Below, in pieces: positions 1 through 64,000 of a stretch of DNA of 64,000 nt. The stretch spans positions 15,529 through 79,528 of IMG/VR virus record IMGVR_UViG_3300006099_000007; one strand, written 5' to 3'. The notes under the pieces are model-generated. The model worked only from the letters and a program-made list of their open reading frames with translations, was not told where the DNA came from and did not search any database. Source of the DNA: a virus. Lineage: Duplodnaviria > Caudoviricetes. The position numbers were made by a program, and so were the translations under genes. The stretch's first letter is position 1, and each line of letters opens with the position of its first letter.

Positions 1-1
1 G

Positions 2-1123
2 GATGGCACCGTCAGCGGGGGGACTTGTAATCAGATTTACGGCATCACGAGATTTTGGCAGTCCCTTGATGTACGGAGTGGAGGTTGGTGGCGTGGAACA
101 ATGATGTATGAAACGGGCATGCTTAACATTGCCCAGGGGGCAAGCCTGAACTGTATTGGACCCGCCACTTTTGCAAGCACACTTAACGCTAATGGCGGCG
201 TCAATATTCCGCTTGCCGTGGGGGCACCGACAGCCACGGGGGTGGTTAATCGCCTGTACGCGGCGGGCATGGCCGGAGTGACAGACATTTTTTCCCTTCA
301 TTTTTACCTTAATACGGGCAGTATTACAGCCACCGGGACGGCGCAAACTTCTGTTCTTGTCGCTGGGCTGTACGCGCGGGTGAACGTTCCTGCGAATACG
401 CACAGCACGATCGTTTGTGCTTTTACAGGACCGGCCGGGCAATGGAATTATTCTAGTTTTGCGGGTTTTTCTATCCCCTGGCAATTAACGGGCGCGGGAA
501 AGTTGACTATTGGCATAGGGAGGGGGAGCAAGGCGACGCGGAAAGATTTAACGCTGGATTCTTACAGTATCATCCCCGGAAATGATCTGGCCTACAATAC
601 CGGCGAAATTCTGGATATTACGTTTGACAATGAGCGCGATGCGGCGCGTGGCGGGTATGTCGTCCGCGTACGGGAAATATACGCAGCCGAGACCGCGCGG
701 AAGTGGATGGTAAAGACCACAACCAGCTTTATCCCGGCGACGCAAAACGAGCCAATTCCCTATATTGTCAATAAAGTCATTTATCATCAATATGCCCCCC
801 GATCGTACAATGCCGGGGATTATGGGGACGCCTATGGCTCATTGTATTTGATGACAGGCGGGGGAAGCAGTCAGCAACTTTGGAAGATTGCCGCGGTGCG
901 CGGCGTGACCACCTTTGAAACGGGCACGGGATTTTCCACGCTTGTAACAGACATGACGGGAATTTCCGGTGGATCTGTCAGCGTGTTTGTTGGGGCGGCG
1001 GAGCGCACCAACTACCAGCCCGGCAACGTCAATCCGGTTTATTACGCTCTGGAAGCTTTGGCTGTCAATGCCATTGAATCCGAGGAAACGGCTGATTTTG
1101 TGGACATTAACATTCCCTTGTAA
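2..1123 (+). CDS. Tail fibre/receptor-binding protein, C-terminal part (5' truncated by window)
   Basis: Frame open from position 2. Shares NANGG(V/I)NIPLAVGAPT..VNRLYA with the 33088-35046 fibre and has the same downstream gene neighbours. Confidence 0.7.
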   Translation, partial: DGTVSGGTCNQIYGITRFWQSLDVRSGGWWRGTMMYETGMLNIAQGASLNCIGPATFASTLNANGGVNIPLAVGAPTATGVVNRLYAAGMAGVTDIFSLHFYLNTGSITATGTAQTSVLVAGLYARVNVPANTHSTIVCAFTGPAGQWNYSSFAGFSIPWQLTGAGKLTIGIGRGSKATRKDLTLDSYSIIPGNDLAYNTGEILDITFDNERDAARGGYVVRVREIYAAETARKWMVKTTTSFIPATQNEPIPYIVNKVIYHQYAPRSYNAGDYGDAYGSLYLMTGGGSSQQLWKIAAVRGVTTFETGTGFSTLVTDMTGISGGSVSVFVGAAERTNYQPGNVNPVYYALEALAVNAIESEETADFVDINIPL

Positions 1124-1125
1124 TC

Positions 1126-1533
1126 ATGAGTAACGCAGAAATACAGATACATTTTCCCCGGCCCGGCGAATGGGAAGAATTTACCTTGACGCCCATTTAC
1201 CAGGCCGCGGGCGGTTATCGACCTCCGGCGCGCTTTACGCAGGACAATATACCCGTGGATCAAGCCCCGGCGATGCGGGCGGTAGTTGCCGCTCTGGTGG
1301 GGCTGGGTGAGGACTGGCAAGCGGGACAGGTTTGGGCGCGGTTGAAAGAGATTTGCGCCAGGCAGGGGGATGATCCTGTGCGGACGGTGGAAACCGTGGA
1401 TTTGACCGTGGAGGCCGTCAACTCTCAAGGGGGCCGCCGGATTTTCACAGCCCGTGACTACCCCGAATTTACGGTTTCTTCACCCGCCGCCGTGGACTTT
1501 TTCAAATACTTCACAAAGCAAAACCATGAGTAA
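1126..1533 (+). CDS. Tail-fibre-associated (assembly/chaperone-like) protein
   Basis: Directly follows the fibre gene. Close paralog of 35039-35458 (EIQIxFPRPGxWxEFTLTPIY..AGGYRPPARF). Confidence 0.6.
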   Translation: MSNAEIQIHFPRPGEWEEFTLTPIYQAAGGYRPPARFTQDNIPVDQAPAMRAVVAALVGLGEDWQAGQVWARLKEICARQGDDPVRTVETVDLTVEAVNSQGGRRIFTARDYPEFTVSSPAAVDFFKYFTKQNHE

Positions 1534-1843
1534 ATTAAGTGACGAGCAAAAGCAGGCCGCCCTTGAGGCGGGGAAGCAGGGCATGAAAGATGCCTACGAA
1601 AAAAGCAAAACTAAAACCGGCCTGAAGTGGTGGGAACGCCTTTTGTGGGTAGTCCTGGCAGGTGCTGCCTATGCGGCTTCCGCTCTGCTGGGTGGCTGCG
1701 GCCATTCCGTTGACGTGACGCCGAAAAAGACGGTGGTATGCAAGGACGGTTCCTGCCTGGTGCTGGAGCCGGGGCATATCTCCTATTCCCAGGCCCAGCC
1801 GGAAACGGACGTTCCGCCCGTCGTTCAATCCCTGAAAAAGTGA
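1526..1843 (+). CDS. Membrane lipoprotein-like lysis-region protein (possible spanin)
   Basis: ATG at 1526; TM helix followed by LGGC lipobox; C-terminus nearly identical to 35455-35922. Confidence 0.5.
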   Translation: MSKLSDEQKQAALEAGKQGMKDAYEKSKTKTGLKWWERLLWVVLAGAAYAASALLGGCGHSVDVTPKKTVVCKDGSCLVLEPGHISYSQAQPETDVPPVVQSLKK

Positions 1844-1847
1844 AGCC

Positions 1848-2126
1848 ATGACCGGATCTGTTGTCAACGCGGGCCTGCTGGGGGCTAATGCCCTGTCCGT
1901 GATTGCGTCCGTCACGTCAGGCAACCCGTTTTTGGAGTACATCCAGAACGGGGCGAGCGTGGCCGCGGTTATGGGAATTTTTCTGTGGCGGGAAATGAAA
2001 CGGGCGGAACGTTATGAGCGGCTTTATGACGAAGAACGCAAAAAACGCATTGATGCGGAAAATAAATGTTCCGGCTGTGAGTTCGTCCGCAAGGCGCATG
2101 AAGAATTCCTGGACAACAGGGACTAG
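1848..2126 (+). CDS. Putative holin
   Basis: Small, hydrophobic N-terminus, charged C-terminus, upstream of the endolysin. Confidence 0.5.
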   Translation: MTGSVVNAGLLGANALSVIASVTSGNPFLEYIQNGASVAAVMGIFLWREMKRAERYERLYDEERKKRIDAENKCSGCEFVRKAHEEFLDNRD

Positions 2127-2182: not shown

Positions 2183-2875
2183 ATGATTATCAAAGAATAT
2201 CAGGAATTCAAACCCGTTCAGCGAGCCCTGGGGCTGAAAGCGGATGGTTTGCCGGGGCCTAAAACGCTGGCCGCCGTAGCTCTGAAATTGCGCTGTCATG
2301 AAATATGGTCCGCGGTCCAGGCCGCCGTGAACGTGACGCCTGACGGCATCCCCGGCCCTGCCACGGCCCGCGGCATTGCCGCCGCCCTGGACATTGCCCT
2401 GCCCCGGTCCTGGCCTGACCAGGCAACCGTCCGTGCCGGTCTTTCCATTTTTGGCCGTGCAGGAGATGAAAACAACCTTGTTTCTATTGTCCCCCCTTAT
2501 CCTTTATATTATGAGGGGCGGCCCGTGAAAACGATCCGCGTGCATCAGGCGATTGCCCAGGACGTTCAGGCGGCCCTGGCGGAAGTCCTGGCCGCGTATG
2601 GCCTGGACCGGATCCGCGCGCTTCACCTGGACCAGTATGGCGGATCCTACAATGACCGCAGCACGGCCGGAGGCAAAAGCAAGAGCATGCACGCCTGGGG
2701 GATTGCCCTGGACTTTGACCCGGAACGGAACAGTTATTCCTGCAAGGCCCCCCATGCCGGGCTTTCCCGCCCGGAGTGTGAAGAATGGTGGAGGATTTGG
2801 GAAGCCCATGGGGCCGTTTCCCTGGGCCGTGAACGGAATTATGACTGGATGCACCTTCAGTTCGCGCGGCTGTAA
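2183..2875 (+). CDS. Endolysin: peptidoglycan-binding repeats plus M15-type peptidase
   Basis: N-terminal DGxPGPxT repeats; C-terminal SMHAWGIALDFD and DWMHLQ Zn motifs. Confidence 0.85.
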   Translation: MIIKEYQEFKPVQRALGLKADGLPGPKTLAAVALKLRCHEIWSAVQAAVNVTPDGIPGPATARGIAAALDIALPRSWPDQATVRAGLSIFGRAGDENNLVSIVPPYPLYYEGRPVKTIRVHQAIAQDVQAALAEVLAAYGLDRIRALHLDQYGGSYNDRSTAGGKSKSMHAWGIALDFDPERNSYSCKAPHAGLSRPECEEWWRIWEAHGAVSLGRERNYDWMHLQFARL

Positions 2876-3220: not shown

Positions 3221-4951
3221 TCAGGATATTTGAAACGTATATTTTTTGCTACGCTTCTTCCCGCGGGAATCCCATTTGACGGTGCGGCCGTCATTTAATT
3301 TGAATGTCTTCCCTCCGTAGGTTGAATTAAGAAGGAAGGAAAAGCGTTTGTTGGATGCCTGGGTGAGTTTGTAACGGGGTATCTTGCTTTCATGCCCGGT
3401 TTCGTCCGTTTCCGTCACGTATTCCGTACGTGCGTCAATAAGAGATTCAAATGAGTTGCGTTCAATGCAGATTTCTATGATTTCGTCCCATTTGATTTCT
3501 CCGTATGTTTCACCGGGCTTCAGGCGTGCCACCGCCGTTTGCACCAAGTCGCGCATGTCCTGAAGGTTTTGGTCTCCGCCTCCGTATATTTCATCAGGAC
3601 GTTCCCCGAACGGATCGCCAATGCCAAGCAGGGAGACAATGCCCGCAATAATGGATGATGTGCGTTGAAACCCTGCTCTTGTTTTGTCCGGCATGGGCCG
3701 TTTTTGCTCTATCCAGTTGCGAACAAACGCATGCAGGCAGGCCAGCAGTTCTGCCCGGTTGCCGGAGTCCTGAATGGTTTCAAGGTCAATGACGCGCTGA
3801 ACTGTCCGGTCCTGGGGATTGGATTCTGTCAAATTCAAGTCGCATATCAGCAGCCGGGAAGCAAGGTCTGTGTTCCACTCCAGGGAGTTTCCGGTGATGA
3901 AGACGGTGGCGCAGTTTTGCTTGGTAACAAGAGATTGCGTATGAAATGGGCGTATGTCTTGGGAGACGGAAGAAATGAAGGATTCTAAACAAGTAGATTG
4001 CAGCTTGCCGCGCAGGTTGTCAAAATAGACGTAGGGCGCGCGGGTGTTAAGGATGGTGTTCAAGACGCCCTGAAGCTTTTCGTCGTCATAATACCATGGA
4101 TGTTTTGCGTTATTGTTGTACGTGATGCCGGTGGCAAGGTCTGCCAATAGTGATTTGCCGGATCTTTGAGAATTGGAGGTATAGACATAACCAAGTCGAG
4201 GTGAGGACAAAGGGAGCATGGCGGATGCGTACAGGGCGACGCAGGCGCAGGTATGGACCGCAAATGAGCGGGATGTGGCGGATGTGGCCCGTTCCTGGAG
4301 GTCAGAGGAAGACCAGTCCAGGAAGGGGAATTCTTTATGCCAGTTGCGCCAGATAAGCAAGGCTTGCTCCAACGGCATTTCCGTGTCGTAGTCCACGGCG
4401 GTTTTCAGGGTGTAGATCTTACTTTCCGGATCATAGCCGCGTTGGTTGAGGTGGTAGGAGCCATTAGGGAGCATGGCCGGGGTGATTTGGTCGTGGATTT
4501 TGATCAATTCCGGGATGGCCGTGAGGAATTCCATGGATGAAAGGGTGAGCTTTGCTAGCGGTTCCTTCATGGGCTGGTAAACGAGCGTTGAATCATCTTT
4601 GGAGCGGAAAGCGCACGGGCAGATATATTTTTCCGCGGCGGAAATGAAATTGTTGGGGTTAAGGTACACGGTTTTGCCGTCGTCTGTGATATACACAGGA
4701 GAGCCGGCCAGATTATAAATAGGGGCATTGGCGCGTTGGAGGGCTATGGCAACACGTTCGCACCATTGGGGGGTTGTCGTGCCATTTTTGGAGGGCATGG
4801 CAACTTTGATTCTTCCGTCCGGTGTAAGGTCGTCTCCGGCAGGGGCGGGGCCTGGTTGCTCCAGACCGGCCAGAAATTGCTGAAGATCCGCTCCGGAGGC
4901 GTTGGTTAGCAAATTTTGTAATTTGAGAATAAGTTCTTGGGGGGAAGTCAT
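3221..4951 (-). CDS. Phage replication helicase-like P-loop NTPase (SF3/D5-like)
   Basis: Walker A SQRSGKS, Walker B VYFDN, FITGN motif; ATGA overlap with the upstream primase sets the start at 4951. Confidence 0.7.
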   Translation of the reverse strand: MTSPQELILKLQNLLTNASGADLQQFLAGLEQPGPAPAGDDLTPDGRIKVAMPSKNGTTTPQWCERVAIALQRANAPIYNLAGSPVYITDDGKTVYLNPNNFISAAEKYICPCAFRSKDDSTLVYQPMKEPLAKLTLSSMEFLTAIPELIKIHDQITPAMLPNGSYHLNQRGYDPESKIYTLKTAVDYDTEMPLEQALLIWRNWHKEFPFLDWSSSDLQERATSATSRSFAVHTCACVALYASAMLPLSSPRLGYVYTSNSQRSGKSLLADLATGITYNNNAKHPWYYDDEKLQGVLNTILNTRAPYVYFDNLRGKLQSTCLESFISSVSQDIRPFHTQSLVTKQNCATVFITGNSLEWNTDLASRLLICDLNLTESNPQDRTVQRVIDLETIQDSGNRAELLACLHAFVRNWIEQKRPMPDKTRAGFQRTSSIIAGIVSLLGIGDPFGERPDEIYGGGDQNLQDMRDLVQTAVARLKPGETYGEIKWDEIIEICIERNSFESLIDARTEYVTETDETGHESKIPRYKLTQASNKRFSFLLNSTYGGKTFKLNDGRTVKWDSRGKKRSKKYTFQIS

Positions 4952-6162
4952 TTTTTGGGAGGGAGTAAGGGGGTGAGAGATTGGAGGGCAGCATTGAGGC
5001 CGTAGGTGGTGCAGGCTGCGGCGGCTTGCTGGATCAAGGGAACCGGCCATTCATCCGGCCGGGCAACGATTTCCGCGGCGCGGGTTGTCCAGTCCTGTTC
5101 TACGTTGCGGAGCGGAGTGGCGTAGAGTAAGGGGCGCAGGGTAGGGCGCGGGTTGAAATACAAAAGTTCCTGAAGTTTTTCCTGGCCGTTTACGGTGCGA
5201 TAACAGCCGGGCAGCCGCGGCATGACAAGATGATTTGTGAGGGCCTGGATGTCTGCGCCAATGAGGGCTAAGGCGGGCTTTATCTGGTCCACATACCCGC
5301 GCCATTCTTCGTGTGTGGCTGCTTCCAGGCGGAAGAGTACATGCAGAGATCGGGATCCGGAGAAGGTGATGGAGACAATGGGGAGGGGTAGAGTAATGAG
5401 TGCCTGGAGCCATTGCTTCACGTCGTCCATTTGATCTGATTCCAGCAAGGCATGACGCCAGGTGAGGACGCATTCTGAAGAGCGGCGGCTTTTTTTCCCG
5501 TCCCTGACGCGGAAAAATCCGTCCACGGGCTGCCCCAGGAAGATAATGCCGTCCGGCGCGGCCGTGGGAATGTGTTTGGCCTGGTCTGGCCAGAGGCATT
5601 GACCTTGCGTTTTTCGGTCGGCAAAAATGATTGTTTTTTCACCGCGTGCCGTATCAAACAGGGCGCGTAAATACAGATCCGGCGTAACTATGGCCGGATC
5701 TGTGGCGGAGATGTTGGCGAGGAAATAGCGGGATAATACTGGAGCCCCTTTTTCCGCCAGGGTGGCAATGACGGAAGAATCAAGCTGCGGGACTGGCGGC
5801 GGCCCTGTGGGGGCCTTGGGTGGCGGGTTGTATTTGGCTGGTCCCTTGGCTATGCGTTTAGAGGGGGGCAAGGTAGTCGGTTCCGGTTTTTTGCGTCCTT
5901 GGGATTTGTCGGTGCCGTAGTTACCCTTGGGGCGGCGCGCCGCGTCTTCCAACTTGCGCCGGAGTTCCTTTTCATTCCAAGGCGGTTCGCACCGGGCGTT
6001 AAATGATAACAGGATAGGCCAGGCTTCATCCAAAGATAGATTGTAGTCGTTTACAAGGATGCGGCATGCGCGGAAGGTTGCCGCATGGCCGCCAGAACCG
6101 GAAACAGCCGGTTCCAGGGTATCAATATGTTTTTGTGCGCGGGAAATGGCGTCCATGGTCAA
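4948..6162 (-). CDS. Primase (PriCT-like N-terminus plus AEP/RepB-like domain)
   Basis: AVSGSGGH..NARCEPPWNEKEL N-terminal domain; HALLESD and FSGSRSLH catalytic-type motifs. Confidence 0.75.
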   Translation of the reverse strand: MTMDAISRAQKHIDTLEPAVSGSGGHAATFRACRILVNDYNLSLDEAWPILLSFNARCEPPWNEKELRRKLEDAARRPKGNYGTDKSQGRKKPEPTTLPPSKRIAKGPAKYNPPPKAPTGPPPVPQLDSSVIATLAEKGAPVLSRYFLANISATDPAIVTPDLYLRALFDTARGEKTIIFADRKTQGQCLWPDQAKHIPTAAPDGIIFLGQPVDGFFRVRDGKKSRRSSECVLTWRHALLESDQMDDVKQWLQALITLPLPIVSITFSGSRSLHVLFRLEAATHEEWRGYVDQIKPALALIGADIQALTNHLVMPRLPGCYRTVNGQEKLQELLYFNPRPTLRPLLYATPLRNVEQDWTTRAAEIVARPDEWPVPLIQQAAAACTTYGLNAALQSLTPLLPPKK

Positions 6163-6743: not shown

Positions 6744-6800
6744 AATGCACCCTCCTTCCAAGATAAGGCTTGCTCCAAAAGTGGAACTAAAAACAAGATG

Positions 6801-6964
6801 TTTACTACATTTTTTACTACGCTAAAGGCGTAAAATGTTGAAAGTAAACATGGAGGCGGGAGCGGGAATCGAACCCGCGAGTTATTCCGGCATATATTCA
6901 GGGGGTATTTTGTCATGGTTTTACTAGGTTTTTTTATGTTTGTTGTTGATGGATTTACTACGCT
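6801..6964. repeat. Integrase arm-type repeats TTTACTAC(GCT) on both sides of the att core
   Basis: Copies at 6801, 6813, about 6920 (variant) and 6954; TTTACTACGCT is exact at 6813-6823 and 6954-6964. Confidence 0.7.
6851..6879 (-). other. att core: 3' fragment of a tRNA (probably tRNA-Cys)
   Basis: Reverse complement CGCGGGTTCGATTCCCGCTCCCGCCTCCA gives a T-arm, acceptor strand, U discriminator and CCA; lies next to the integrase. Confidence 0.8.
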
Positions 6965-6980
6965 GTACTACGTTGCTCCT

Positions 6981-8260: not shown

Positions 8261-8278
8261 TGGTGTGTGTGGGGGGGG

Positions 8279-54900: not shown

Positions 54901-57900
54901 CAGTGGGTGAAGGACACCGCGGAGTTCGCCCTGAAGAATCTGGAGGATTCCGCCCGCATCATACGCATGGGCGAGCAATGGAACGAGTTTGCCGCGACGG
55001 ACGAGGGGAAGAAGTTTATGGAAGAGCACGGAGGCCTGGCAGACGCCCTGCAGGCCGTGGGCGTGAGTACGGAGAGCGTTTTCCGCCAGGCGCGGATGGA
55101 TGCCGCGCAGAAACTGGATGTGGAGATGGTGCACGCGGACCTTGCTTCCCGCAGGGCTCCGGGGGATGCCACGATGACGCTGGGCGAGCTGGAGGCACTG
55201 GAAGAGTCCATGGCGCGGATGGATGCCGCGGAGGATGTGGAAGAGACCGCGGAAGAGGAGGATGAGACTGATCCCGTGACCGGCATTGCCGGGAATTCGG
55301 CATCCCCCGCTCCGCTGGTGGAGGATGCCGGCGGCTCCCTGGAGGGGGTGGGGGAAGAGGCCGAACACGATGAAGAGGCCGGCGCGGAGTTCCGCGATCA
55401 CGCGTTTGTGCGGGTGGCGCCGGATTGCGTGTTTGCCCAGGTGCGGGTGGATTCCCTGGCCCTGGCGCCGGATGTGGAGCAGTTCAAGCAGGGAGATCAT
55501 AATGAACGCGGAGCCGTGAAGGGGCGCGAGCTTCAGGGATGGTTCCGGGAAGACGCCCAGCCCATTTCCGTGTGGCGGCGCAGGGATGGAGCCCTGCATG
55601 TGATTACCGGACGCCACCGGTTTGATTTGGCCGTGCGCGACGGGGTGGAGTTTATTCCGGCTTACGTGTATGAAGAAGATGATGCGCATGACGCCACTTG
55701 GGCGAAGATGCACGACGTCGGGCAGAATATGCTGGACGGTCAGGCGTCCGCGCTGGAGGTGGCTTTTTTTGTCCGGAATTCCAATATGGGCCGGGACGAG
55801 ATGGAGGCGCAGGGGTATTTGCGCCCCGGTTCCGCCAATGTGATGGGCTGGGATATTGCCACCCTGGCCGGGGATGAGGTGTTTACCCGCCTGAAGAACG
55901 GGGTGATTACGGATAACGAGGCGTGGAAGGTATGCCGCCTGTCTTCAACGGAGGCGGGACAGATGCTTGCCCTGCAGCTGCGCGAGAAGGGGAAGCCGTG
56001 GGATTACGTGGCGGCCTATGTGAAGGAGGCGGACCGGGTGGCTGCGGAGAAGTCCCGGGAGGGAGAGGCGTTTGATTTGTTCGGCAACGATACGTCCTGG
56101 CAGGAGGATTGCGAGAAGGTGGCCCGCTTTGCGGCCCGGGGGATTTCCCTGATTGCCGAACGCCTGTCCCTTCTGAAGAAGTCCAGAGGCATCAGCCGGC
56201 GGAAGGATTTGGCGGGCAGGATGGGCATCCGCCTGGAGACGGACGCAGATTTGAATGCGGCCATTCATGATTTGGAAAGAGCCAAGGGGGCATGGCAGTC
56301 CCATGACCCGGCGCTGCACCTTCATGACCGCGCCCTTGCCTGGGACGGCACGAGTGAAGTGAATCCGTTCGAGCGTGTGCCCGTTTCCGGGGCGACGTTT
56401 TCCGTGGTTGCCATGGATAGTTCCGGAACTGTCCTGGCTCCGGAGACGTTCGTCACCCGGGAAGACGGAAGTCCTGACTGGTTTGTGATTCCGCGCCGCA
56501 AGAGGCAGCCAGCCATGCCGGTGCGGCTGCTGGTGGGTTCCGATGTCGGGGAGCATCGCGGCTATGGACTGACCCATATCCTGGCTTCCCGCGGGTTTTC
56601 CTTCTGGAAGGACCGTTCCCCGGAACGCTATATCAGTTCCATTCTGGCGAATGTGAGCGAGCTTTACGAGGTGGCGCCCGGGCGTGAGCTGCTGGTTAAG
56701 GGAAGGCAGCCTTCTTCATGGATGCTGCTGCAATTGGACCGGAAGGACGGGTTTTATTCCATTGTCTCGGCTTATCCAGTGCGGCAGGGCAAGAAGCCGC
56801 TGGGGAAGAAGCTCCCCCTTGCAGAGCGACAACCTGCAAACGCGAATAGCGGCACCGCGCGCCTAGGTCCAGGATCGGCAAGCAAGGCCGCTCTGCCGTC
56901 CCAATCCGCTGGCGGGGGAGATGGTTTTTCCTTACCACAAGGGGCGCATGTTGTCAACGTGAATGAAGTGGAATGCCGGTTTGACGACGGGGCTATTGTT
57001 CCGGCGACGTTTTCCCTATCTCTGGAAAAAGAGGCAATCAAGAAGGAAGCTGTGGCTGCGGGCACGTTCATGAAGGCCCCGAACGGGAAGGAAACGAATC
57101 TGACGGAAGACCAGTGGCTTGCCGTGCGCACGGCGGCGTTTAAGAATTGGTTTGGCGATTGGGAGAAGGATCCGCAGAATGCTTCCAAGGTGGTGGACGA
57201 GAACGGGGAGCCGAGGGTGGTGTATCATGGGACATACGGTGATTTCACGGTGTTTGACAAGGCCAAGATTGGATCTGCTACTGATTATGGTATATGGGGT
57301 AGAGGATTTTATTTTACCAATATGGAGAATACTCCGTACGGGAACAAGAAGCTGGCTCTGTTTCTGAATATCAGGAATCCGTTTATTTTTAATGATTACA
57401 AGTCTGCTGAAGAGATAGGCGATTATTTAAATATTTGGGATGGGAATTTTCATGAAGATGACAGGTTTGGAATATTCCGGCCGTATGCGACAGGAGCGGC
57501 CCAGATAGCCGATAGTGCTCAAGAAAGAGGACATGATGGACTCATTGCTGTACTGGGTAAATGGACGGAGTACATTGCCTTTGAGCCGAATCAGATCAAG
57601 TCCTCCACGAACAACCGGGGGACGTTTGATCCGAAGAATCCGGACATTACGTTTTCCATTGTTTCGGCACAGGAACAGGGCTTGTTCCGGGACGGCCATT
57701 TTGAGGCGGGCAACGCTGTGATTACGGAACCGGGGGTGACGTTCTCCATTACTGCCCTGCATGCTTCCCCTCACAGTTTTCGCAAGTTTGATACGGCGTT
57801 CATGGGCAAGGGGGAAGGAGCGCAGGCGTATGGCTGGGGACTTTATTTTGCGGAAAATCCGGAGGTGAACCGGAGTTATATGAACCAGTTCGCGCAGGAT

Positions 57901-60900
57901 AAGACGACATGGAAGTTCCGGGAGGTGGAGACTGGCGTTATAGAAGTGATGCAACGATCCCTGGTAAATAGTTTTTTGCCGAAGGATGCCCTGCCGGAGG
58001 CCAAGGAGGACGCGTCAGATATCGCCTGGTCTGTTCTTGGCGATTTGGTTGATGCCTCCAAAGGAAGCATGACTGTTTCAGACATCGCCAGAGAGGTGAT
58101 GGAGGAGATTGAAATCAACAGGAAACACGCGGAGGAGTATCCCCAGGAGCGGGAGAAAATGGTCCAGCTGGAAGGCTTTCTACTTTCTCTGCTTGATCAT
58201 CTGGACGAGATAGAGGTCAGGACGGGCATGCCTTCCAATTACCGCGTGGAGCTGAATGTGGAGGATTATTTGGACTTCATGGAAGGAGGGGAGCTGCTGT
58301 TTTGGGATAAAGGGTACGGCTCATCTACAACATCCAGAATAGGAGATTGGCTTCTGGATGAGGGCAAGGAAGAAGCGTATTCTTTGTTCAACGACAAGGA
58401 TCCGGAAAATGGGTATTGGATGGGGGGCAAGATTTACCGCTCGTTGGAGGATGCCTTGGGAAGCCCCAGAGAGGCGAGCGAGTTTCTGTTAAGGCATGGA
58501 GTGAGGGGCATCAGGTACGCAGACGGTTTTTCCCGCTGGAAGGCGGAGGAGAAGCAGACGTATAATTACGTGATTTTTGACGGCAACGATATTAAGATTA
58601 CGGCGTTTGCGGACGAGTCCACCGGGGGAGCGTGGGCGGATTATGAGGATCCGACGGCGAGTTTCTCTCTTGCCACGAGAGAAAGTGTCTGGGTGACGCT
58701 GGAGCGGGAGGCGCAGAAGAACCGTTTGGAGGTGCTGCGCAGCCAGACGGCAAAAGCGTTGGAGACATGGCGCCGGGTTTGCGCGGCCAACGATGTGAAG
58801 CAGGGAGACGGCGCGGAGGCGTTCGGAAGGGTCATGGCCGTGGTGGCTTCCATTTACAAGACGCTGCCGGAGGGGTACAGGTTTGGCCTTTACCCTTACA
58901 TGAGAGCTGCCGAGAATCTTGCCACCCGTCTGGAGGACGGTCAGGCATGGCTTTCCGATGAGCTGAAGAAGGAGACGCTGATGGACGATACCAGCGAGCG
59001 CATGGATGCCGTGATTGACAAGCTGCTGGCCCGCACGCTGGAACAGGCAGACCGATATGCCGTCGACCAGATGCGGGCGGAGATGGTTGCCCGCATCAAG
59101 GCCGTGCAGCCGACGAAGAAGGCCAGCGGGAAGTTTAACAAGGGCAAGTTGAGCGCGGAGGATTACAGGCATTTGCACGGGATAGTCGCCATGATGAATA
59201 CGGACCAGGAGGCGAAGGAGAAGCGAATGCTGGAGCTGGAGGGCGTGCTTTCCAGCAACCAGTCCACCGAAGAGGAACGGGGTGCGGCCGAGCTGGAATT
59301 GAAGGATTGGCACACGTTCGGATATCTGGCCGGGATGGGACTGGAGCAGACGCGCGCCTGCGCGCGCGCCCTTGCCCTGTTTATCACGACGGGACGGACG
59401 GCCTGGTCCACCCGGTTGGACGAGGAGAGGCGCCGGACGAAGTTCAAGGCCGAGAAGATTGTGGAAGGGCTTGGGCAGGCCACTCCCCAGGGAGGACGTG
59501 ACGCGGAAGAGGATGCGAAGGCGTCTACGAGAACGAAGGCGGCCAAGTACCTGAAGTACGGTTTGCAGTCTTATTCCCAGCTGTTGAATGGATGGAAGAA
59601 GATTCCCGCCCTGCGCGGTCTGGCGCATGCCGAGGTTACTGCGATTGCCGAGGCGAATGTGGCGTTGAGGAATATGAAGCACGCCCGGGACCGGGAGGTG
59701 ACGGCCCTGGTTAAGCGGTGTTTTGGCGTTCAGCGCACCAAAGATGTGGCAAGGGTTCTTTCCGATTTCAAGAAGACAGGGGATTCCGGCGTAGTGCTGA
59801 ATCCGCTGGTGAAGGTGGAGCGCACCGTGAGGATCGCCGAGGCCCGCGAGTGGGTGGGGTTGTCTTTTGAGGAGAGGGAGGAACGACGCAAGGCAATCAG
59901 GAAGGAGTACAATGACCGGGGGCTTTCCGACGATAAGGCGTCCGTGCCGGAAGCGCTTATTCCGGAGATGCGCCGGCAGCTTGCCGAGCTGGATGAATTG
60001 GTGAAGGCCGGAGACGGACGGGCCAGAAGGAGGAAGAATATTACGGCGAAGGAGGAAGTGGTGCGCCCGGGCAGGAAGGGCGAGACGTTGAAGGTTTCCC
60101 GCGCCCAGGCGATGTATGCCATTTTGCTTTACGAGCAGGCCGAGTACGTGGAGACGATGCGGAATGAAGGCATTGGAGAAGCGGAGGTTGCCCGCCTGCG
60201 CGAGTTTGTGGGCGCCGAAGGGCTGGCGTTCGGCTACGGCCTGCGGGAGCTGATGAACCGGCAGGGAAAGCTGCTGGCCCGTGTGTATGAGGAGCGTGAG
60301 GGGGTTCCCTTCCCCGCGGTGGAGAATTATTTCCGGGCCGTGTTCCGGGCGGACCACAAGCTTGATACGAAGGCGTCTTTCGGGGAACAGACGAATGCCG
60401 TGGCCGGCGGGGCGAAGTACGGGATGCTGATTCCCAGGCGGAAGCACAATTTGCACCTGGCCTGGAATATGGATTGCGAGGCCGTGTTCCAGGCGGCGAG
60501 CGCCGAGGTGGAGAATTATATTTGCACGGCGGATATTACTGCCCGCTGGCGCGGCATTCTGGCGGACAAGGAGGCGGCAGCGTCCCTGAAGGAGCACATG
60601 GGGCGCCACGGGATTGATTCGCTGCGGCACTGGCTGGATGTGATCGACGGGGCCGGAGTGATGGAGGGGGGCGCCCTGCTGGCCGGAGCCCAGGCGACAA
60701 GCCGCTTCCAGAGCGCCAAGGCGGTGGCCCTGCTGGCCTGGAACGTGCTGACGATGCTCAAGCAGACCAGCGGCCTGATGCACGGGATGTTTGCCGGGGA
60801 GGTTGGCATGGGGAGTTTCCTGCTGCACCTGGGGCAGACGATGTCCATGACCGGACGCATGGGGGTGTTTGAGGTGATGAAGACGGAGGCTTTCCGGGCG

Positions 60901-61785
60901 AGGACCAATGACGCTCAGGCGGAGCTGGTGAGCCAGCTGATGGGGTATGCTTCCGATCAGAATTACACCGGAGCGATCAGGTTTTCCATGGCCGGCATGA
61001 GGGCTATTGAGAAGATGGACGTGTGGAGCAATGCCGTGTCCATGGCCGCCCTGTATAACGCGAAGTGGGCCGAGCTGGAAGAGGCAGGAAAAAGGACCGG
61101 CGTCCCGATGACGGATGATGAGATGCACGCCCTGTGCATGCAGAGCGTGACCCGGGCGCTGGAGCTGGTGGCCCAGCCGCTGACGCAGAGCCAGAAGAGC
61201 ATGCTGGGGGCTTCCACGGGCCTGTTTGCGAAGATGGCCTGTTTTATGAGTTCCGAGGTGTTGAATAAGGTGGGGATGATCGTTTCTCATGTGAGCTCCG
61301 GGAATTGGGGGCAGGCTCTTGCTTTATATGGAATGATGTCCGTTGCCGAACAGACGGTGATTGCCCTGTGGCACGCCCTGCTGGATGACGAGGACGAGTG
61401 GGAGAAGAACGGCGGATGGTTCGGCGCCATGCTGGGGGCTCCTGTTGCCATGATTGGCGGGGTGCCGATGCTGGGTGCGGCGGTGGAGTTTGGCTACAAG
61501 CAGGCGACTGGACAGCGTATTTACGCAGGCACCGCGTCCGGAGTGATTGATTATTCCGCGATTTACCGGGCGGCCAAAAATACGTGGAAAGCCGTCACCG
61601 GGGAGAAGGAGATGACGTTTGCCGATTGGGCGGAATTGATTCTGCTGGATGCCAAGGCGGCCGCTTACGTGGCCGGAGCGGGCGCCGGGAGCCGCAGCAA
61701 GGCGGCTGATTCCGTGGCGTCCTGGCTCTTGTCCGTGGCTGGGGTGGCGAATTTGTCCAAGCCTGGGTTTAAGCTGGCGGAGTGA
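51958..61785 (+). CDS. Giant polyvalent virion/ejection protein (ParB-like, BECR-nuclease-like and two ART-like domains)
   Basis: VITGRHR ParB-like motif; YGLTHI..YSIVSAY; VYHGT..GRGFYF..PNQIKS; LHASPH..EGAQAYGWGLYF. Confidence 0.8.
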   Translation: MNDNFSFDGADAADMPLDLSFSSLPLPEGEAAAGFHLPEMEPGTGQEQAAADINLLNGSDVMETTPSPFPAPEDPSETEFRPQLTDPESLHDQGAMMMYGAAEREERRRKDKQARLMDVLRAGAMDGEGRKKAAELWGQDALNRLDLASEHDRAYMLGNRLMETIGDGDRDVGRQIYKNANNLWGTDVVTADQIWKDFQGRHQKTLDAYNENLKRVQTEQEEISRRIVDCVAGKEGSWDACPADLLKYAESPQKAADSIMRARRAYAFAERRGFEDVWRSDALDMADLLTVNVNGNEVLDQQALMLLMTAIDRKVQESQTDSAAFWRNLYRSFADTARGAESLGVKAVQAVRGIPGMSGMEEWYSNNIAPLQGVKDTFDGQRQLFDRYEQRREALNTMQDVMHEFGQRMRGTSPDASWYVKAINGAGNITGQSLSYMAPGGWALALAGDMGHAGNAASRNGDSLVDVTINGLRNTVEEKGFGVFSVFGRMGAINKLMTRTGTGALARLAAKVPGRTFFAGTRTGKMLSTPAFAYVEEMAAEPLAGELFEWTARKLSGMTGMEVKPKDFEVVGPVLQAMGDVEQSGGCALFVAAMAAGHAPRMKQEVAAFVTDAQRAQLAGYTKKHAEEMASFSTAEHKAALAQKYFETDVLKDPEGAAERARKAGAELADRQEARLYQMSGALDKVLEKANIGRIRKLEGTDRYEVSLREGAVVNGVKMEEDRSVEMNEEQTDALVQVVLQGAYLNGVRVMQDAVLGNAAISEAGKMDFIETLDMLSEEAPAEYRKAAAETGGMTVPGLMDVAARAQARIDAIVREEGVSVQEARSRTDAEVMGKVQLGSIADLAAAFERRLDHAVRSGEITRGRSEEIRNGTAAASFAHRFTMATDPGSSLLLYAGGHATTANVMEDVQESALVHYMNLTGKDWQDLWEHLQAADAVLGRYGVSLGTYEGPAHDARDVVESFSNLSLSSSLADIESLPVPQWVKDTAEFALKNLEDSARIIRMGEQWNEFAATDEGKKFMEEHGGLADALQAVGVSTESVFRQARMDAAQKLDVEMVHADLASRRAPGDATMTLGELEALEESMARMDAAEDVEETAEEEDETDPVTGIAGNSASPAPLVEDAGGSLEGVGEEAEHDEEAGAEFRDHAFVRVAPDCVFAQVRVDSLALAPDVEQFKQGDHNERGAVKGRELQGWFREDAQPISVWRRRDGALHVITGRHRFDLAVRDGVEFIPAYVYEEDDAHDATWAKMHDVGQNMLDGQASALEVAFFVRNSNMGRDEMEAQGYLRPGSANVMGWDIATLAGDEVFTRLKNGVITDNEAWKVCRLSSTEAGQMLALQLREKGKPWDYVAAYVKEADRVAAEKSREGEAFDLFGNDTSWQEDCEKVARFAARGISLIAERLSLLKKSRGISRRKDLAGRMGIRLETDADLNAAIHDLERAKGAWQSHDPALHLHDRALAWDGTSEVNPFERVPVSGATFSVVAMDSSGTVLAPETFVTREDGSPDWFVIPRRKRQPAMPVRLLVGSDVGEHRGYGLTHILASRGFSFWKDRSPERYISSILANVSELYEVAPGRELLVKGRQPSSWMLLQLDRKDGFYSIVSAYPVRQGKKPLGKKLPLAERQPANANSGTARLGPGSASKAALPSQSAGGGDGFSLPQGAHVVNVNEVECRFDDGAIVPATFSLSLEKEAIKKEAVAAGTFMKAPNGKETNLTEDQWLAVRTAAFKNWFGDWEKDPQNASKVVDENGEPRVVYHGTYGDFTVFDKAKIGSATDYGIWGRGFYFTNMENTPYGNKKLALFLNIRNPFIFNDYKSAEEIGDYLNIWDGNFHEDDRFGIFRPYATGAAQIADSAQERGHDGLIAVLGKWTEYIAFEPNQIKSSTNNRGTFDPKNPDITFSIVSAQEQGLFRDGHFEAGNAVITEPGVTFSITALHASPHSFRKFDTAFMGKGEGAQAYGWGLYFAENPEVNRSYMNQFAQDKTTWKFREVETGVIEVMQRSLVNSFLPKDALPEAKEDASDIAWSVLGDLVDASKGSMTVSDIAREVMEEIEINRKHAEEYPQEREKMVQLEGFLLSLLDHLDEIEVRTGMPSNYRVELNVEDYLDFMEGGELLFWDKGYGSSTTSRIGDWLLDEGKEEAYSLFNDKDPENGYWMGGKIYRSLEDALGSPREASEFLLRHGVRGIRYADGFSRWKAEEKQTYNYVIFDGNDIKITAFADESTGGAWADYEDPTASFSLATRESVWVTLEREAQKNRLEVLRSQTAKALETWRRVCAANDVKQGDGAEAFGRVMAVVASIYKTLPEGYRFGLYPYMRAAENLATRLEDGQAWLSDELKKETLMDDTSERMDAVIDKLLARTLEQADRYAVDQMRAEMVARIKAVQPTKKASGKFNKGKLSAEDYRHLHGIVAMMNTDQEAKEKRMLELEGVLSSNQSTEEERGAAELELKDWHTFGYLAGMGLEQTRACARALALFITTGRTAWSTRLDEERRRTKFKAEKIVEGLGQATPQGGRDAEEDAKASTRTKAAKYLKYGLQSYSQLLNGWKKIPALRGLAHAEVTAIAEANVALRNMKHARDREVTALVKRCFGVQRTKDVARVLSDFKKTGDSGVVLNPLVKVERTVRIAEAREWVGLSFEEREERRKAIRKEYNDRGLSDDKASVPEALIPEMRRQLAELDELVKAGDGRARRRKNITAKEEVVRPGRKGETLKVSRAQAMYAILLYEQAEYVETMRNEGIGEAEVARLREFVGAEGLAFGYGLRELMNRQGKLLARVYEEREGVPFPAVENYFRAVFRADHKLDTKASFGEQTNAVAGGAKYGMLIPRRKHNLHLAWNMDCEAVFQAASAEVENYICTADITARWRGILADKEAAASLKEHMGRHGIDSLRHWLDVIDGAGVMEGGALLAGAQATSRFQSAKAVALLAWNVLTMLKQTSGLMHGMFAGEVGMGSFLLHLGQTMSMTGRMGVFEVMKTEAFRARTNDAQAELVSQLMGYASDQNYTGAIRFSMAGMRAIEKMDVWSNAVSMAALYNAKWAELEEAGKRTGVPMTDDEMHALCMQSVTRALELVAQPLTQSQKSMLGASTGLFAKMACFMSSEVLNKVGMIVSHVSSGNWGQALALYGMMSVAEQTVIALWHALLDDEDEWEKNGGWFGAMLGAPVAMIGGVPMLGAAVEFGYKQATGQRIYAGTASGVIDYSAIYRAAKNTWKAVTGEKEMTFADWAELILLDAKAAAYVAGAGAGSRSKAADSVASWLLSVAGVANLSKPGFKLAE
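52389..52553 (+). repeat. 165-bp direct repeat, copy 1 (inside the giant protein gene)
   Basis: 163/165 identical to 62422-62586. Confidence 0.9.
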
Positions 61786-61840
61786 TTCCAAAATATTGCA
61801 AGCTTGTGTTTCATTTTGTGCGCCATTATGGTGTGGACTC

Positions 61841-62722
61841 ATGAAAGGCTTGCTGATTGCTGTTTGCGTTCTTCTGGGGGTGGCGCTGTTGCCGATGCCT
61901 TACGGGTATTATATGTTCCTGCGTTTAGCTGTCTGTGCTTATGCTGTCTTTGTATTTGCACAGGAACAGAAGAAGGGAGTTTGTTTTGGAAGCGTGTCAG
62001 CCGCCGCTATTGCCCTGCTTTACAATCCCATTTTCCGGGTGCATTTGGAGAAAGAGGTCTGGATGTGGGTGAATGCCGGAACCATTGTTCTTTTTTTGTC
62101 CATTATGGCGCCATGGTCCATTATCTGGAAGAAGGTGAAGGGTCCGGTTAAAGTCCTGTTTGTGCTTCTGGTAATTGCTTCCGCCGCTTTTGCTGTTGTC
62201 AAATATAGAGAGAATGAAAGGCTGGAGAAGGTGGCCACCCATGAGCGAATGCAACAGGAGCAGGCGAGAGCAAAGCAGGAAGAGAAGATGGAATGTTACA
62301 GAGCAAGGAAAGGATCGAATACCAAGGAGATGGTCTTGATGGATCTTGTGCTGTTTGCTACCGGAGATGAAGGGGCGAAAGAGAGATTCCGCGTACGTTG
62401 GGGCGAAGATGCTGTTTCCCTCCTTGATCTGGCTAGCGAACATGACCGGGCTTATATGCTTGGGAATCGCCTGATGGAGACCATCGGTGACGGAGATAGA
62501 GATGTAGGCCGCCAGATTTACAAGAACGCCAACAATTTGTGGGGAACAGATGTTGTTACGGCAGATCAGATTTGGAAGGATTTTCAGGAGAGGAATGCAT
62601 GCGTTGTGGAGGTAGAAAAGAATATGAACGCGATCAACGCAGAAGACTGGAATAGTAATGGAGCCGAAGTTTTTGCTAAGAGCTTTTTCAAGAAGCAGAT
62701 ACAACTCAAGATTCCGAAGTAG
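61841..62722 (+). CDS. Membrane protein (DUF6804-like N-terminus) fused to a copy of a giant-protein segment
   Basis: LPMPYGYYMFLR..LLYNPIFRVHLEKEVW TM domain; C-terminal segment matches the giant protein. Confidence 0.75.
   Translation: MKGLLIAVCVLLGVALLPMPYGYYMFLRLAVCAYAVFVFAQEQKKGVCFGSVSAAAIALLYNPIFRVHLEKEVWMWVNAGTIVLFLSIMAPWSIIWKKVKGPVKVLFVLLVIASAAFAVVKYRENERLEKVATHERMQQEQARAKQEEKMECYRARKGSNTKEMVLMDLVLFATGDEGAKERFRVRWGEDAVSLLDLASEHDRAYMLGNRLMETIGDGDRDVGRQIYKNANNLWGTDVVTADQIWKDFQERNACVVEVEKNMNAINAEDWNSNGAEVFAKSFFKKQIQLKIPK
62422..62586 (+). repeat. 165-bp direct repeat, copy 2
   Basis: Same reading frame and peptide as copy 1; both differences are synonymous. Confidence 0.9.
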
Positions 62723-62779
62723 GGAAATAGTAGAGCTAAATTCTTAAAAAGCACCACGAAACTTTCTGAAAGGAATTTA

Positions 62780-62808
62780 TTGACTTGGAAAGAACCGATA
62801 CATATAAG
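62780..62808 (+). promoter_or_regulatory. Sigma70-like promoter
   Basis: TTGACT-17 bp-TATAAG just upstream of the ATG at 62816. Confidence 0.65.
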
Positions 62809-62815
62809 GGAGAAT

Positions 62816-63625
62816 ATGGACATTAAAGAAGCTGTTTCAATTTCTTTCAAGGCATTAGGTAAGAAAGAAGCCCACGTAAACGATATAGCGGAGCATATTG
62901 TTCAGCATATCGCTGAATTTCAAGGGGCATCCGTTGAGGACATGAAGAAGAAGGTTAATTCTTTTTTGGCAGCCAATGTCAAAAGCAAGACACCGGTTTA
63001 TGCAAAGGTTATCAATCCAAAGACGAAGAGATCCAGAAAGGGGCTTTATAAGATCAAGCCGGAGCCAAAAGGTACTCAAGTCATCAGAACAGAACCTGAC
63101 CGTAAAAAGAAACCAAACCCCGGAGGAGATAAGCAAGTACAACTCCCTCTTGTCTTTTCCAATACTTCCTGCGACAAGATCTTTTGCGGTAAAGGTGGTG
63201 AATTTGCTGTAGTGAGTGAATTATTATTCCGTGGCTATAATGCCAGCATTATGTCTGCTGATGAAGGAGTTGATATTACAGCGTCAAAAGGAGACAAATT
63301 TTTCTTTATTCAGGTTAAAACTTCTTTTTTCAAAGAAAACAAGCTTTCTGTTTTCATTAAACCGAATAATTTTATCAACAGCTCTACCGCTAATATATTT
63401 TATGTGATTGTGTTCCGCTATTCATGCGATGGGCATATGACTAATCGTTTTCTCATTTTGCAAAATGGGGATATTAACAGAATGCAACACGGAGGATATA
63501 TTAGCACATCAGACGCCGGAATGACAATCAAGGTCAAGCAAGACAATAGAGGATTGTTTATCTATAACCGAGATAAACAAGAAGACGCAACCTATTACCT
63601 AGATAATTTTGATCTCATTAGGTAG
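62816..63625 (+). CDS. HARE-HTH-like domain plus PD-(D/E)xK restriction-endonuclease-like protein
   Basis: N-terminal winged HTH ending GLYKIK; GEFAVVSELL..DEGVDI..IQVK nuclease motif; AT-rich. Confidence 0.7.
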   Translation: MDIKEAVSISFKALGKKEAHVNDIAEHIVQHIAEFQGASVEDMKKKVNSFLAANVKSKTPVYAKVINPKTKRSRKGLYKIKPEPKGTQVIRTEPDRKKKPNPGGDKQVQLPLVFSNTSCDKIFCGKGGEFAVVSELLFRGYNASIMSADEGVDITASKGDKFFFIQVKTSFFKENKLSVFIKPNNFINSSTANIFYVIVFRYSCDGHMTNRFLILQNGDINRMQHGGYISTSDAGMTIKVKQDNRGLFIYNRDKQEDATYYLDNFDLIR

Positions 63626-63805
63626 AAACTTATTTAACAAAAAAGCCCCTGACCCGGAGGCCAAGGGCTGAACAGGAGCGCTTTTCTGGGAGGATGCTAC
63701 TGTACACGGCTGTAATGGCAATAAAAAACCGCCCGCGTTTCCCAACGTGGACGGCTAACGGAAAATAAAAAAGAGGGTTTACCTATAACATACCTCTCTA
63801 TTACG

Positions 63806-64000
63806 TCAAGCTTTCTTCCAGCGTTCCAGCGTTTCCACATAGATGCCGGAGATTTTACCGCCGTCCATGGGTTCGATGTCTCCGAAGTCGGGATTGAGTG
63901 GATGTAATACGTATTCCATTTTTCCGGTTTCCGGGTTTTTCCTGCGAACCAGTTTTTTGAGCGTCACCCCTCGTTCATCGTGGTATTGAACAATGGTTCC
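63806..64000 (-). CDS. C-terminus of an S24-family (LexA/CI-like) repressor, 5' part outside the window
   Basis: Open frame ..GVTLKKL..YVLHPLNPDFGDI..ISGIYV.. ending at TGA 63808-63806. Confidence 0.75.
   Translation of the reverse strand, partial: GTIVQYHDERGVTLKKLVRRKNPETGKMEYVLHPLNPDFGDIEPMDGGKISGIYVETLERWKKA

Follow-up and report, generated by a model that had tools for sequence, protein, structure and literature searches.

We analyzed a 64,000-nt window that covers the final 64 kb of one linear IMG/VR virus record of 79,528 bp; 15.5 kb more lies upstream, and coordinates below zero (e.g., −37) denote contig positions upstream of the window. Within the window, one complete siphovirus unit is followed by a podovirus-type late region, and the switch falls inside a tail-fibre gene (Table 1). 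The upstream 15.5 kb was found to be a second, different siphovirus late module (A), 65 to 80% identical to the siphovirus in the window (B), and the contig thus runs from siphovirus A to siphovirus B to the podovirus. At that level of identity, a perfect tandem repeat of one phage was ruled out. No host DNA was present in the 79.5-kb contig, and neither circularity nor terminal repeats were found in it.

Table 1. Features of the 64,000-nt window, in window coordinates.
Feature	Position	Strand	Remarks
Tip 1 (tail-fibre C-terminal part)	1..1123	+	Gene start upstream of window; from about −37, matches tip of natural B-type proviruses
Cassette 1, three small ORFs	1126..2126	+	ORF without match; TM segment plus Cys lipobox (spanin-like); small membrane protein (holin-like)
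Endolysin, siphovirus type	2183..2875	+	Peptidase_M15_4 plus PG-binding domain
Siphovirus replication genes	3221..6761	-	Primase/helicase-like plus 200-aa ORF
Siphovirus attP core	6851..6880	.	Reverse complement of 3' 30 nt of tRNA-Cys(gca); unsplit; edge of natural proviruses
Siphovirus tyrosine integrase	6915..7997	+	Matches phrog_1
Siphovirus early/regulatory region	7976..14300	.	HTH regulator 11781-12134; HicB/HicA-like pair 13672-14300
tRNA-Glu(ttc), phage-borne	14507..14582	+	Relatives match host tRNA-Glu 24 nt from attL
Siphovirus B late region	15193..33086	+	terS, terL, portal, protease, capsid, tail genes, tape measure (27047-29674), distal tail genes
Mosaic tail-fibre gene	33037..35046	+	N-terminal anchor 33037-33543; shaft from 33544
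82-nt switch block	33979..34060	.	Identical in siphovirus lineage (L054) and podovirus-type lineage (L085)
Cassette 2, three small ORFs	35039..36154	+	
Amidase_3 endolysin	36406..36948	+	Podovirus context only
Podovirus portal (phrog_332) and scaffold/protease	37183..39843	+	
Podovirus tyrosine integrase	39897..41036	-	Between scaffold and capsid genes; matches phrog_1
Podovirus attP core	41153..41170	.	TTTGGCGGAGAGAGTGGG; 3' end of tRNA-Ser; unsplit in contig
Podovirus late region	41295..64000	+	Capsid, 1154-aa tail protein, terL, tail protein, 785-aa lysozyme-domain protein, 3275-aa giant protein, DUF6804 membrane protein, 281-aa ORF

Siphovirus B carries an M15 endolysin, primase/helicase, integrase, regulators, HicAB, tRNA-Glu, terS/terL, portal, protease, capsid, tape measure, tail genes, and fibre. 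Its tape measure (875 aa) matched phrog_9959 and phrog_1942 and, together with the long-tail genes, predicts a siphovirus morphotype for the unit. The fibre motif DGTV is encoded at 2-13 and again at 34114-34125. Five natural B-type loci (L052, L053, L054, L057, and L065), three of which come from IMG/VR records whose taxon IDs are isolate-style, pass from 34096 directly into −37 and on to 6880, giving a unit of 34.1 kb. Because natural relatives close in this way, the two DGTV sites are in practice homologous, and a chance match is excluded. An earlier reading of the window, made from sequence only, had placed one full lambda-like gene set, in permuted order, between these two motifs, and the natural relatives bore this out. 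In all five relatives, the B shaft was paired with tip 1, which the window contig carries at −37; upstream of about −37, the contig is A-type siphovirus. Between them, cassettes 1 and 2 share 81 to 87% identity. A 28-nt motif preceding the endolysin is also common to the phages.

Both attachment sites are unsplit, as the sequence-only reading had described them, with tRNA 3' cores and arm repeats on both sides. TTTACTA repeats at 6801, 6813, 6920, and 6954 (four of the five copies in the window) lie two on each side of the siphovirus core, and TCTGTAA flanks the podovirus core at 41153-41170 on both sides. Elsewhere, provirus edges fall at these same cores: natural B-type proviruses end at 6851 and 6880, at tRNA-Cys, and five complete podovirus proviruses (41 to 45.5 kb) begin near 41153 and have their other end at the integrase. 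Judged from these edges and the tyrosine integrases, both units are tRNA-integrating temperate phages. Many IMG/VR contigs end at 41036; we rejected this position as an att edge, since it is a trimmed gene end and the true core is 41153-41170. An unsplit form of the podovirus attP was also present in L007, a contig from another sample.

From 36186 onward, the window matched podovirus-type relatives only. Within this unit, matches to phrog_332, phrog_376, and phrog_394, together with the lysozyme-domain protein and the 3275-aa protein, would fit a T7-like set and a putative podovirus morphotype, and a tail tube is among the genes of this part. No match to a tape measure was found among the annotated genes of the podovirus unit, for which part of a complete provirus's ORFs was scanned. 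Each of the complete podovirus proviruses has a fibre N-terminus of its own as well as a repressor, an exonuclease, a replication initiator, and terS, and the window contig lacks all of these; the missing part amounts to about 10 kb, by which the contig, ending at 64000, falls short of a full podovirus genome. The sequence-only reading had the sequence continue into a podovirus-type genome; neither the incompleteness of the podovirus part nor the module upstream of the window was visible to it. Among GenBank phages, megablast of the podovirus half gave no match, and the sole match of the siphovirus half was phage Moulinsart (1%). A pattern-based search of genome contigs for the podovirus portal returned no confirmed locus, which is not evidence of absence.

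All junctions in the contig fall within segments that the putative parents have in common at 100% identity or close to it (33979-34060, 35900-36185, and −37 to +100). The fibre N-terminal anchor (33037-33543) occurred in siphoviruses only. The switches are sharp: siphovirus L054 was 99.5% identical to the window up to 34060, and contig L085 was 100% identical from 33979 to the stop codon (tip 2, 33979-35046), with a podovirus-type terS and a podovirus-type fibre N-terminus upstream of the tip. The A-to-B switch occurred at the homologous point of the fibre gene, between about −37 and 0 and within the shared region −37 to +100. Both switches, from A to B and from B to podovirus type, fall at the same fibre shaft/tip node, and natural relatives show the unshifted pairings. 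Downstream of the fibre, 35047-35900 had no close relative, and 35900-36185 was common to siphovirus and podovirus lineages at 99 to 100% identity. Tip swapping at the shaft/tip boundary was the rule among relatives, and one siphovirus (L051) carried the podovirus-type shaft allele. None of the 56 related loci in IMG/VR had the fused siphovirus-podovirus junction: all 22 podovirus-portal loci lacked siphovirus sequence to the left of 33544, and continuation into 36186 and beyond was absent from all 34 siphovirus-tail loci.

Words of 31501-41500 were present at 98 to 99% in only four sequencing runs, all from one mouse-gut study and treated here as possible sources only; all other runs contained at most 55%. 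In Logan contigs from these runs, built at k = 31, where the pairing of in-edges with out-edges is not resolvable and rare variants are dropped, breaks fell at 33696, 34031, 34218, 34659, 35271, 35892, 35922, and 36193, that is, at every mosaic boundary. The switch block 33979-34060 was a node with two ways in and two ways out. One loose end led from 34060 into a siphovirus continuation of the L052/L053/L065 type that is absent from the window contig. Other loose ends led from 35900 to window position 1828, from 36185 to 2158, and from 36209 to an L091-type sequence. A loose end at 33062 was rejected as an alternative genome junction, being merely a 27-nt repeated motif with a second copy at 19435. 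At 33957, 33972, and 33978, siphovirus alleles (T, C, and T) stand against podovirus alleles (A, G, and G), and the podovirus-type SNPs were seen in run X2 only.

Depth was compared as per-contig means, so that comparison between contigs is crude. On this measure, shared nodes in run X1 reached about 52 (33957; 35922-36193) against 21 to 29 in their flanks, with similar patterns in X2 and X3. Across X1, X2, and X3, respectively, depth was 21 to 26, 30 to 33, and 35 to 39 for tip 2 and cassette 2; 29, 30, and 37 for the podovirus; and 27.5, 20.8, and 28.5 for siphovirus B. Tip 2 and cassette 2 followed the podovirus rather than siphovirus B, a weak trend. In the source-study runs, the podovirus core was split into attL (Akkermansia flank before 41153) and attR (tRNA-Ser body after 41170), and the same flank adjoined an empty attB in an Akkermansia metagenome-assembled genome. 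The podovirus is thus integrated in these runs, at an Akkermansia tRNA-Ser. In one run contig, an unbranched path led from the host flank across 41153 into the podovirus, which indicates a single integrated podovirus copy. In run X18, with about 50% of the words, a 99%-like podovirus was integrated at this core too, but its flank and its cassette were different.

Taken together, these data make it probable that the contig arose as a chimeric assembly, in which shared repeats led the path through three temperate phages that are separate members of one Akkermansia population's phage complement. The sequence-only reading had instead favored a co-integrate of two phages and rated an assembly join as equally possible; the join is now the best reading, no longer one of two with equal weight, and the co-integrate is not supported. 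A co-integrate would contain both complete genomes, with the duplicated crossover region at their flanks. Here, the podovirus lacks about 10 kb and the left flank of the first fibre copy belongs to a third phage. Nor was the fused junction found independently, since none of the 56 loci contained it and no run outside the one study exceeded 55% of the words. A broader version of the same idea, in which three phages were co-induced in a polylysogen and their excised circles joined at the shared fibre node with attP intact, would account for the topology, which is exactly that of single crossovers between circles at a shared node, including two intact attP sites; frequent natural exchange at the fibre node and the unsplit podovirus attP from another sample also fit. 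We nevertheless consider such a hetero-concatemer decidedly unlikely, given that an L052-like siphovirus continuation leaves the node at comparable depth in the candidate source runs, that the podovirus is integrated in those runs, that the fused form is absent from the 56 related contigs and from every other study, that the molecule would be far too long for packaging, and that depth in X2, one of the coverage comparisons the sequence-only reading had suggested, differs across the junction (20.8 for siphovirus B versus 30.1, as crude per-contig means). Very unlikely, in our view, is the strongest form of this proposal, a real triple hetero-concatemer in which circles recombine at a dedicated conserved fibre linker and abundant co-integrates serve as intermediates that swap tips and lysis cassettes across morphotypes.

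Two points run counter to a chimera. Reads of 100 to 150 nt are longer than the 82-nt block and may have given the original assembler direct support for the passage from siphovirus shaft to tip 2, and natural recombination occurs at these same boundaries (as in L051), and a real recombinant is therefore possible. On this basis the contig might be partly real: siphovirus B would truly carry tip 2, acquired in a recent swap from a podovirus-type phage, and the 35900-36185 link and the A-to-B link would be assembly errors. With the block shorter than a read, correct assembly is possible; siphoviruses with a podovirus-type shaft allele exist, and tip swapping at the boundary is usual among relatives. 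Yet the runs contain the L052-type continuation from the same node, tip 1 is the partner of the B shaft in all five natural B-type relatives, the closest tip 2 (100% identical) is preceded in its contig by a terS and a fibre N-terminus of podovirus type, and tip 2 has a podovirus-like depth pattern; we regard this mixed origin as unlikely. A chromosomal array of tandem prophages in a polylysogenic Akkermansia, with the att sites as tandem junctions, appears highly improbable. Adjacent prophages do occur (in contig 3300027542_000792, the fibre, cassette, and amidase end of another phage lies less than 10 kb from the siphovirus attL), and a tandem junction would resemble attP. Against an array, the contig extends for 79.5 kb without host DNA or flanking hybrid att sites, its siphovirus late region leads to a podovirus portal and not to endolysin, primase, and attR, and the runs show an unbranched path from host flank through 41153 into the podovirus with a single attL and attR.

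Under the chimeric-assembly reading, the path would have arisen because the three phages share near-identical fibre shaft/tip pieces, a small downstream lysis cassette, and the 28-nt motif that precedes the endolysin. On reaching the shared fibre node, the assembler would have passed from the A shaft to the B tip, made one round of B through its intact attP, and then moved from the B shaft to a podovirus-type tip. The podovirus itself would have been entered through the second shared node (35900-36185), and the path would have crossed the podovirus attP before stopping. The unsplit attP sites may reflect circles that had been excised in the sample, or a path that walked across the att cores. 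Each phage is real, an ordinary tRNA-integrating temperate phage, and exchange of fibre and lysis modules between Akkermansia siphoviruses and podoviruses is likewise real in nature and of an already known kind.

Taken at face value, the contig would capture, as a physical molecule, a rare intermediate in the recombination of phages that differ in tail type. The evidence instead favors a database artefact, in which a 79.5-kb "virus genome" rated 100% complete consists of about 1.5 siphoviruses and two thirds of a podovirus, and flagging it averts wrong conclusions on genome size, gene content, and host range. What remains is useful but not new in kind, namely, interchangeable fibre shaft, tip, and lysis cassettes with sharp exchange points in Akkermansia temperate siphoviruses and podoviruses, for which this analysis defines the att sites (tRNA-Cys, and tRNA-Ser or tRNA-Gly).

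The contig resembles known repeat-induced chimeric contigs and false concatemers in its junctions within shared segments, alternative continuations in the contig graph, doubled node depth, length beyond any natural relative, duplicated gene sets, and confinement to one study. It differs in threading two tail morphotypes and two intact attP sites, the latter requiring excised forms or att-core walking besides the fibre repeats. The siphoviruses follow the order of Akkermansia phage Moulinsart (ON453896; 31.3 kb; A. muciniphila) and related IMG/VR siphovirus proviruses (terL, portal, protease, tape measure, fibre, small ORFs, endolysin, repressor/toxin, primase, and integrase), with a similar genome size and a short stretch of 89% DNA identity. 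However, only about 1% of the queried siphovirus DNA matched Moulinsart at the megablast level, and the siphoviruses of the window are other species, with integration at tRNA-Cys. The podovirus part is 82 to 99% identical over 36930-52000 to temperate Akkermansia podovirus-type proviruses in IMG/VR (for example, IMGVR_UViG_2898972302_000001 and 2850282261_000001; 41 to 45.5 kb) and shares their order of portal, scaffold, integrase, att, capsid, tail, terL, and giant protein. Those proviruses integrate beside tRNA-Ser or tRNA-Gly genes and are complete, each having an early region and a fibre N-terminus of its own, whereas the window carries a truncated copy, permuted around attP. Receptor-binding modules are known to cross morphotypes, as in the tailspikes of P22, Sf6, Det7, and 9NA and the tail fibres of lambda, P2, Mu, P1, and T4. 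The Akkermansia phages share with these a morphotype-specific N-terminal anchor joined to a common shaft and tip, with sharp boundaries at conserved linkers and gene ends; they differ in that a lysis-type cassette travels with the tip and in that the host is Akkermansia.

The source of the window is a single linear virus record of 79,528 bp (IMG/VR class "linear"; CheckV, 100% complete), of which the window spans bases 15529-79528; the record has neither a terminal repeat nor any host DNA. The 15.5 kb preceding the window are a second siphovirus late module (siphovirus A), only 65 to 80% identical to the module within it (siphovirus B); the record therefore holds three virion modules, not two. 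GC skew on the late-gene strand is positive in every 2-kb bin of the window (maximum, 0.33).

Features of the 64,000-nt window
Feature	Position	Strand	Remark
Fibre C-terminus (tip 1)	1-1123
Cassette 1, three small ORFs	1126-2126		Lysis-like, because one encodes a TM-plus-lipobox protein and one a small membrane protein
M15 endolysin	2183-2875
Primase/helicase genes	3221-6761	minus
Integrase B	6915-7997
Early genes	between integrase B and tRNA-Glu		HicAB-like genes among them
tRNA-Glu(ttc)	14507-14582
terS, terL, portal, protease, capsid, tape measure, tail genes	15193-33086		Tape measure, 27047-29674
Fibre B	33037-35046
Cassette 2	35039-36154		81-87% identical to cassette 1
Amidase_3 endolysin	36406-36948
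Podovirus-type portal, then scaffold	37183-38832 (portal)
Integrase C	39897-41036	minus
Podovirus-type capsid	41295-42290
1154-aa tail protein	between podovirus-type capsid and terL
Podovirus-type terL	46294-47907
785-aa lysozyme-domain protein, 3275-aa protein	after podovirus-type terL		Contig ends at 64000

We followed the best-matching relatives along the contig. Siphovirus relatives are 98 to 100% identical up to ~34060 (100-nt bins). Contig L085, in which a terS and a fibre N-terminus of podovirus type lie upstream, is 100% identical over 33979-35046, to the fibre stop codon, and an exact 82-nt block (33979-34060) is common to the siphovirus and podovirus-type lineages. No close relative of 35047-35900 was found among the compared loci; 35900-36185 is common to both lineages and ends in a 28-nt motif with a second copy at 2130-2157, and from 36186 onward only podovirus relatives match. 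At the left end (~-37 to +100; negative positions lie upstream of the window), the best match passes from A-type (L068, L069) to B-type (L052, L054) at the homologous shaft/tip position. Given both switch positions, the contig order is A shaft to B tip, whole B, B shaft to podovirus-type tip, podovirus. In this order, the partners at a single shared node are shifted cyclically.

The fibre motif DGTV, seen at 2 and 34114 in the sequence-only reading, is encoded at both positions and marks true homology according to five natural B relatives (L052, L053, L054, L057, and L065; three are IMG/VR records with isolate-style taxon IDs), in which the sequence up to 34096 joins -37 to 6880 directly. The natural unit is therefore -37 to 34096, 34.1 kb. 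Natural siphovirus proviruses start at 6851 and end at 6880; this 30-nt core equals the 3' end of a tRNA-Cys(gca) that is intact at the right provirus edge, and two TTTACTA copies on each side of the core make up four of the five in the window. Of 34 siphovirus-tail loci, none extends into the sequence from 36186 onward.

The phage tRNA-Glu matches a host tRNA-Glu that is inverted and separated from attL by 24 nt. In IMGVR_UViG_3300029732_000278 (L046/L051), a reversed late region is joined to attL-int exactly at tRNA-Glu, so that the two tRNA-Glu copies either mediated a true inversion or were misjoined in this assembly too. Immediately before the phage tRNA-Glu (13672-14300, minus), a HicB-like antitoxin is accompanied by a small toxin-like ORF. 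A moron-like 299-aa gene (18465-19364, minus; phrog_1762, unknown function) sits in an AT-richer patch between terL and portal. A 27-nt motif beginning TTTTGAAAAAGCTCCTGAAGGGTA (19435-19461, 21281-21307, 25115-25141, and 33062-33088; copies 85 to 100% identical) stands just before each of the siphovirus late-gene blocks for portal region, protease, tail, and fibre and is a candidate late promoter or regulatory site; among the contigs of the runs it also gave rise to a link in the graph. In the 46-kb IMGVR_UViG_3300027542_000792 (L095/L045), the end of another phage (fibre tip, cassette, amidase, tail-like genes, different integrase) lies before the siphovirus attL, within ~10 kb of it; Akkermansia can therefore carry adjacent prophages at neighbouring tRNA genes.

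Five complete podovirus proviruses (G001 to G005; 41 to 45.5 kb) begin with attL and capsid and continue through a giant protein to a CI-like repressor, exonuclease, replication initiator, and terS, followed by their own fibre, cassette, endolysin, portal, scaffold, integrase, and attR. Podoviruses thus normally have the order fibre-cassette-endolysin-portal, which is present in 22/22 portal-bearing loci. Siphovirus sequence left of 33544 occurs in none of these 22 loci, and the window lacks the ~10 kb that separate 64000 from the podovirus fibre. The first 180 residues of that fibre are its own; from residue 175, it has an Ala-rich shaft in common with the window fibre, and the tips differ. 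Natural podovirus proviruses start at ~41153; in one relative (L011), 41155-41170 is a 16-nt overlap with tRNA-Ser, other relatives adjoin tRNA-Gly, and TCTGTAA flanks the att core on both sides. As had been claimed from two-sided arms, both attP sites (tRNA-Cys and tRNA-Ser) are unsplit; a contig from another sample (L007) also passes through the podovirus attP unsplit. Such sites could reflect excised phage DNA or an assembly path that walked across the att cores.

Natural podovirus proviruses have a ~1.1-kb insert between terL and the next tail gene (G003:6882-8019; G005 6588-7725 in the orientation used), absent from the window (47909-47917), that may be a mobile gene, e.g., a homing endonuclease. 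Part of the N-terminal region of the 3275-aa protein (52304-52563) is repeated at 62337-62596 (85% over 260 nt; 94% over 198 nt), within a 357-aa ORF (61649-62722) with a DUF6804 membrane domain.

Sampled words of 31501-41500 were found at 98 to 99% in only four runs, all from one mouse-gut study and possible sources only (other runs, ≤55%). In three of these (X1, X2, and X3), long k=31 contigs cover 26001-32139 left of the node (within a 17.6-kb contig) and, right of it, 36164-41170 and 41153-46000 (the latter inside 18- to 22-kb contigs); across 33696-36193 the contigs shatter, with breaks at mosaic boundaries. The loose end at 34060 leads into a string absent from the record and present in natural B-type L052, L053, and L065; those at 35900 and 36185 lead to siphovirus sequence at 1828 (cassette 1) and 2158 (M15 endolysin), respectively, and that at 36209 leads into an L091-type endolysin. 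An X2 contig has podovirus-type letters across 33957, 33972, and 33978. Depth is ~52 in shared nodes versus 21 to 29 in flanks. From the alternative ends and depth, the fibre node therefore has two in-edges and two out-edges.

In the same runs, the contig with 41153-46000 has >6 kb of other DNA ahead of 41153, and that with 36164-41170 runs on into ATTCGAACCCACGG. The 30-nt flank string has a single occurrence in the genome contigs searched, in an uncultured Akkermansia metagenome-assembled genome, where the core and an intact tRNA-Ser(tga) adjoin it directly, indicating an empty attB. Flanks and empty attB together therefore show that in those samples the podovirus is integrated as a single, ordinary provirus. 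No attP-bridging contig is listed there; contigs drop rare variants, so excised circles may also have been present.

The most economical reading, and in our judgment the probable one, is that repeats led the assembly along a chimeric path through three temperate phages resident together. The co-integrate of two phages proposed earlier is most likely an assembly artefact, given three modules and a pairing at the fibre node shown by no natural relative; the assembly join, then offered as an equal alternative, is now favoured. Siphovirus B might truly have tip 2 (the podovirus-type tip), with only the later links false: a read is longer than the 82-nt block, and there are siphoviruses that carry the podovirus-type shaft allele (L051). 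Over X1, X2, and X3, tip 2 and cassette 2 track the podovirus in depth, not siphovirus B (X2, 20.8 for siphovirus versus 30.1 for podovirus), weak evidence because the values are per-contig means. We consider a genuine tip 2 on siphovirus B unlikely. A real co-integrate or hetero-concatemer, which would have the same topology as the observed contig, seems less likely again, and a chromosomal tandem array does not fit and is very improbable.

Whatever joined them here, two kinds of Akkermansia temperate phage have a host-recognition fibre end and a small lysis-type cassette in common: a 34-kb, tape-measure-bearing siphovirus integrating at tRNA-Cys and a 41- to 45-kb podovirus-type phage integrating at tRNA-Ser or tRNA-Gly, with integrase and attP between scaffold and capsid genes. 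The N-terminal fibre anchor is specific to each morphotype and would attach the fibre to its own phage's tail, and shaft, tip, and cassette are swapped at gene ends and short conserved linkers, probably through homologous recombination; at the sequence level, the mosaic boundaries of these modules are shown. Among named, cultured phages, a single relative was found, Akkermansia phage Moulinsart. Its repressor/toxin pair is similar to the HicB-like pair of the window, and its sole megablast match to the query (query 1-284, ~window 2900-3183) falls on the Moulinsart pair. The exchange described here follows a known principle, modular receptor-binding protein exchange across morphotypes, as in the tailspikes of P22, Sf6, Det7, and 9NA and the fibres of lambda, P2, Mu, and T4.
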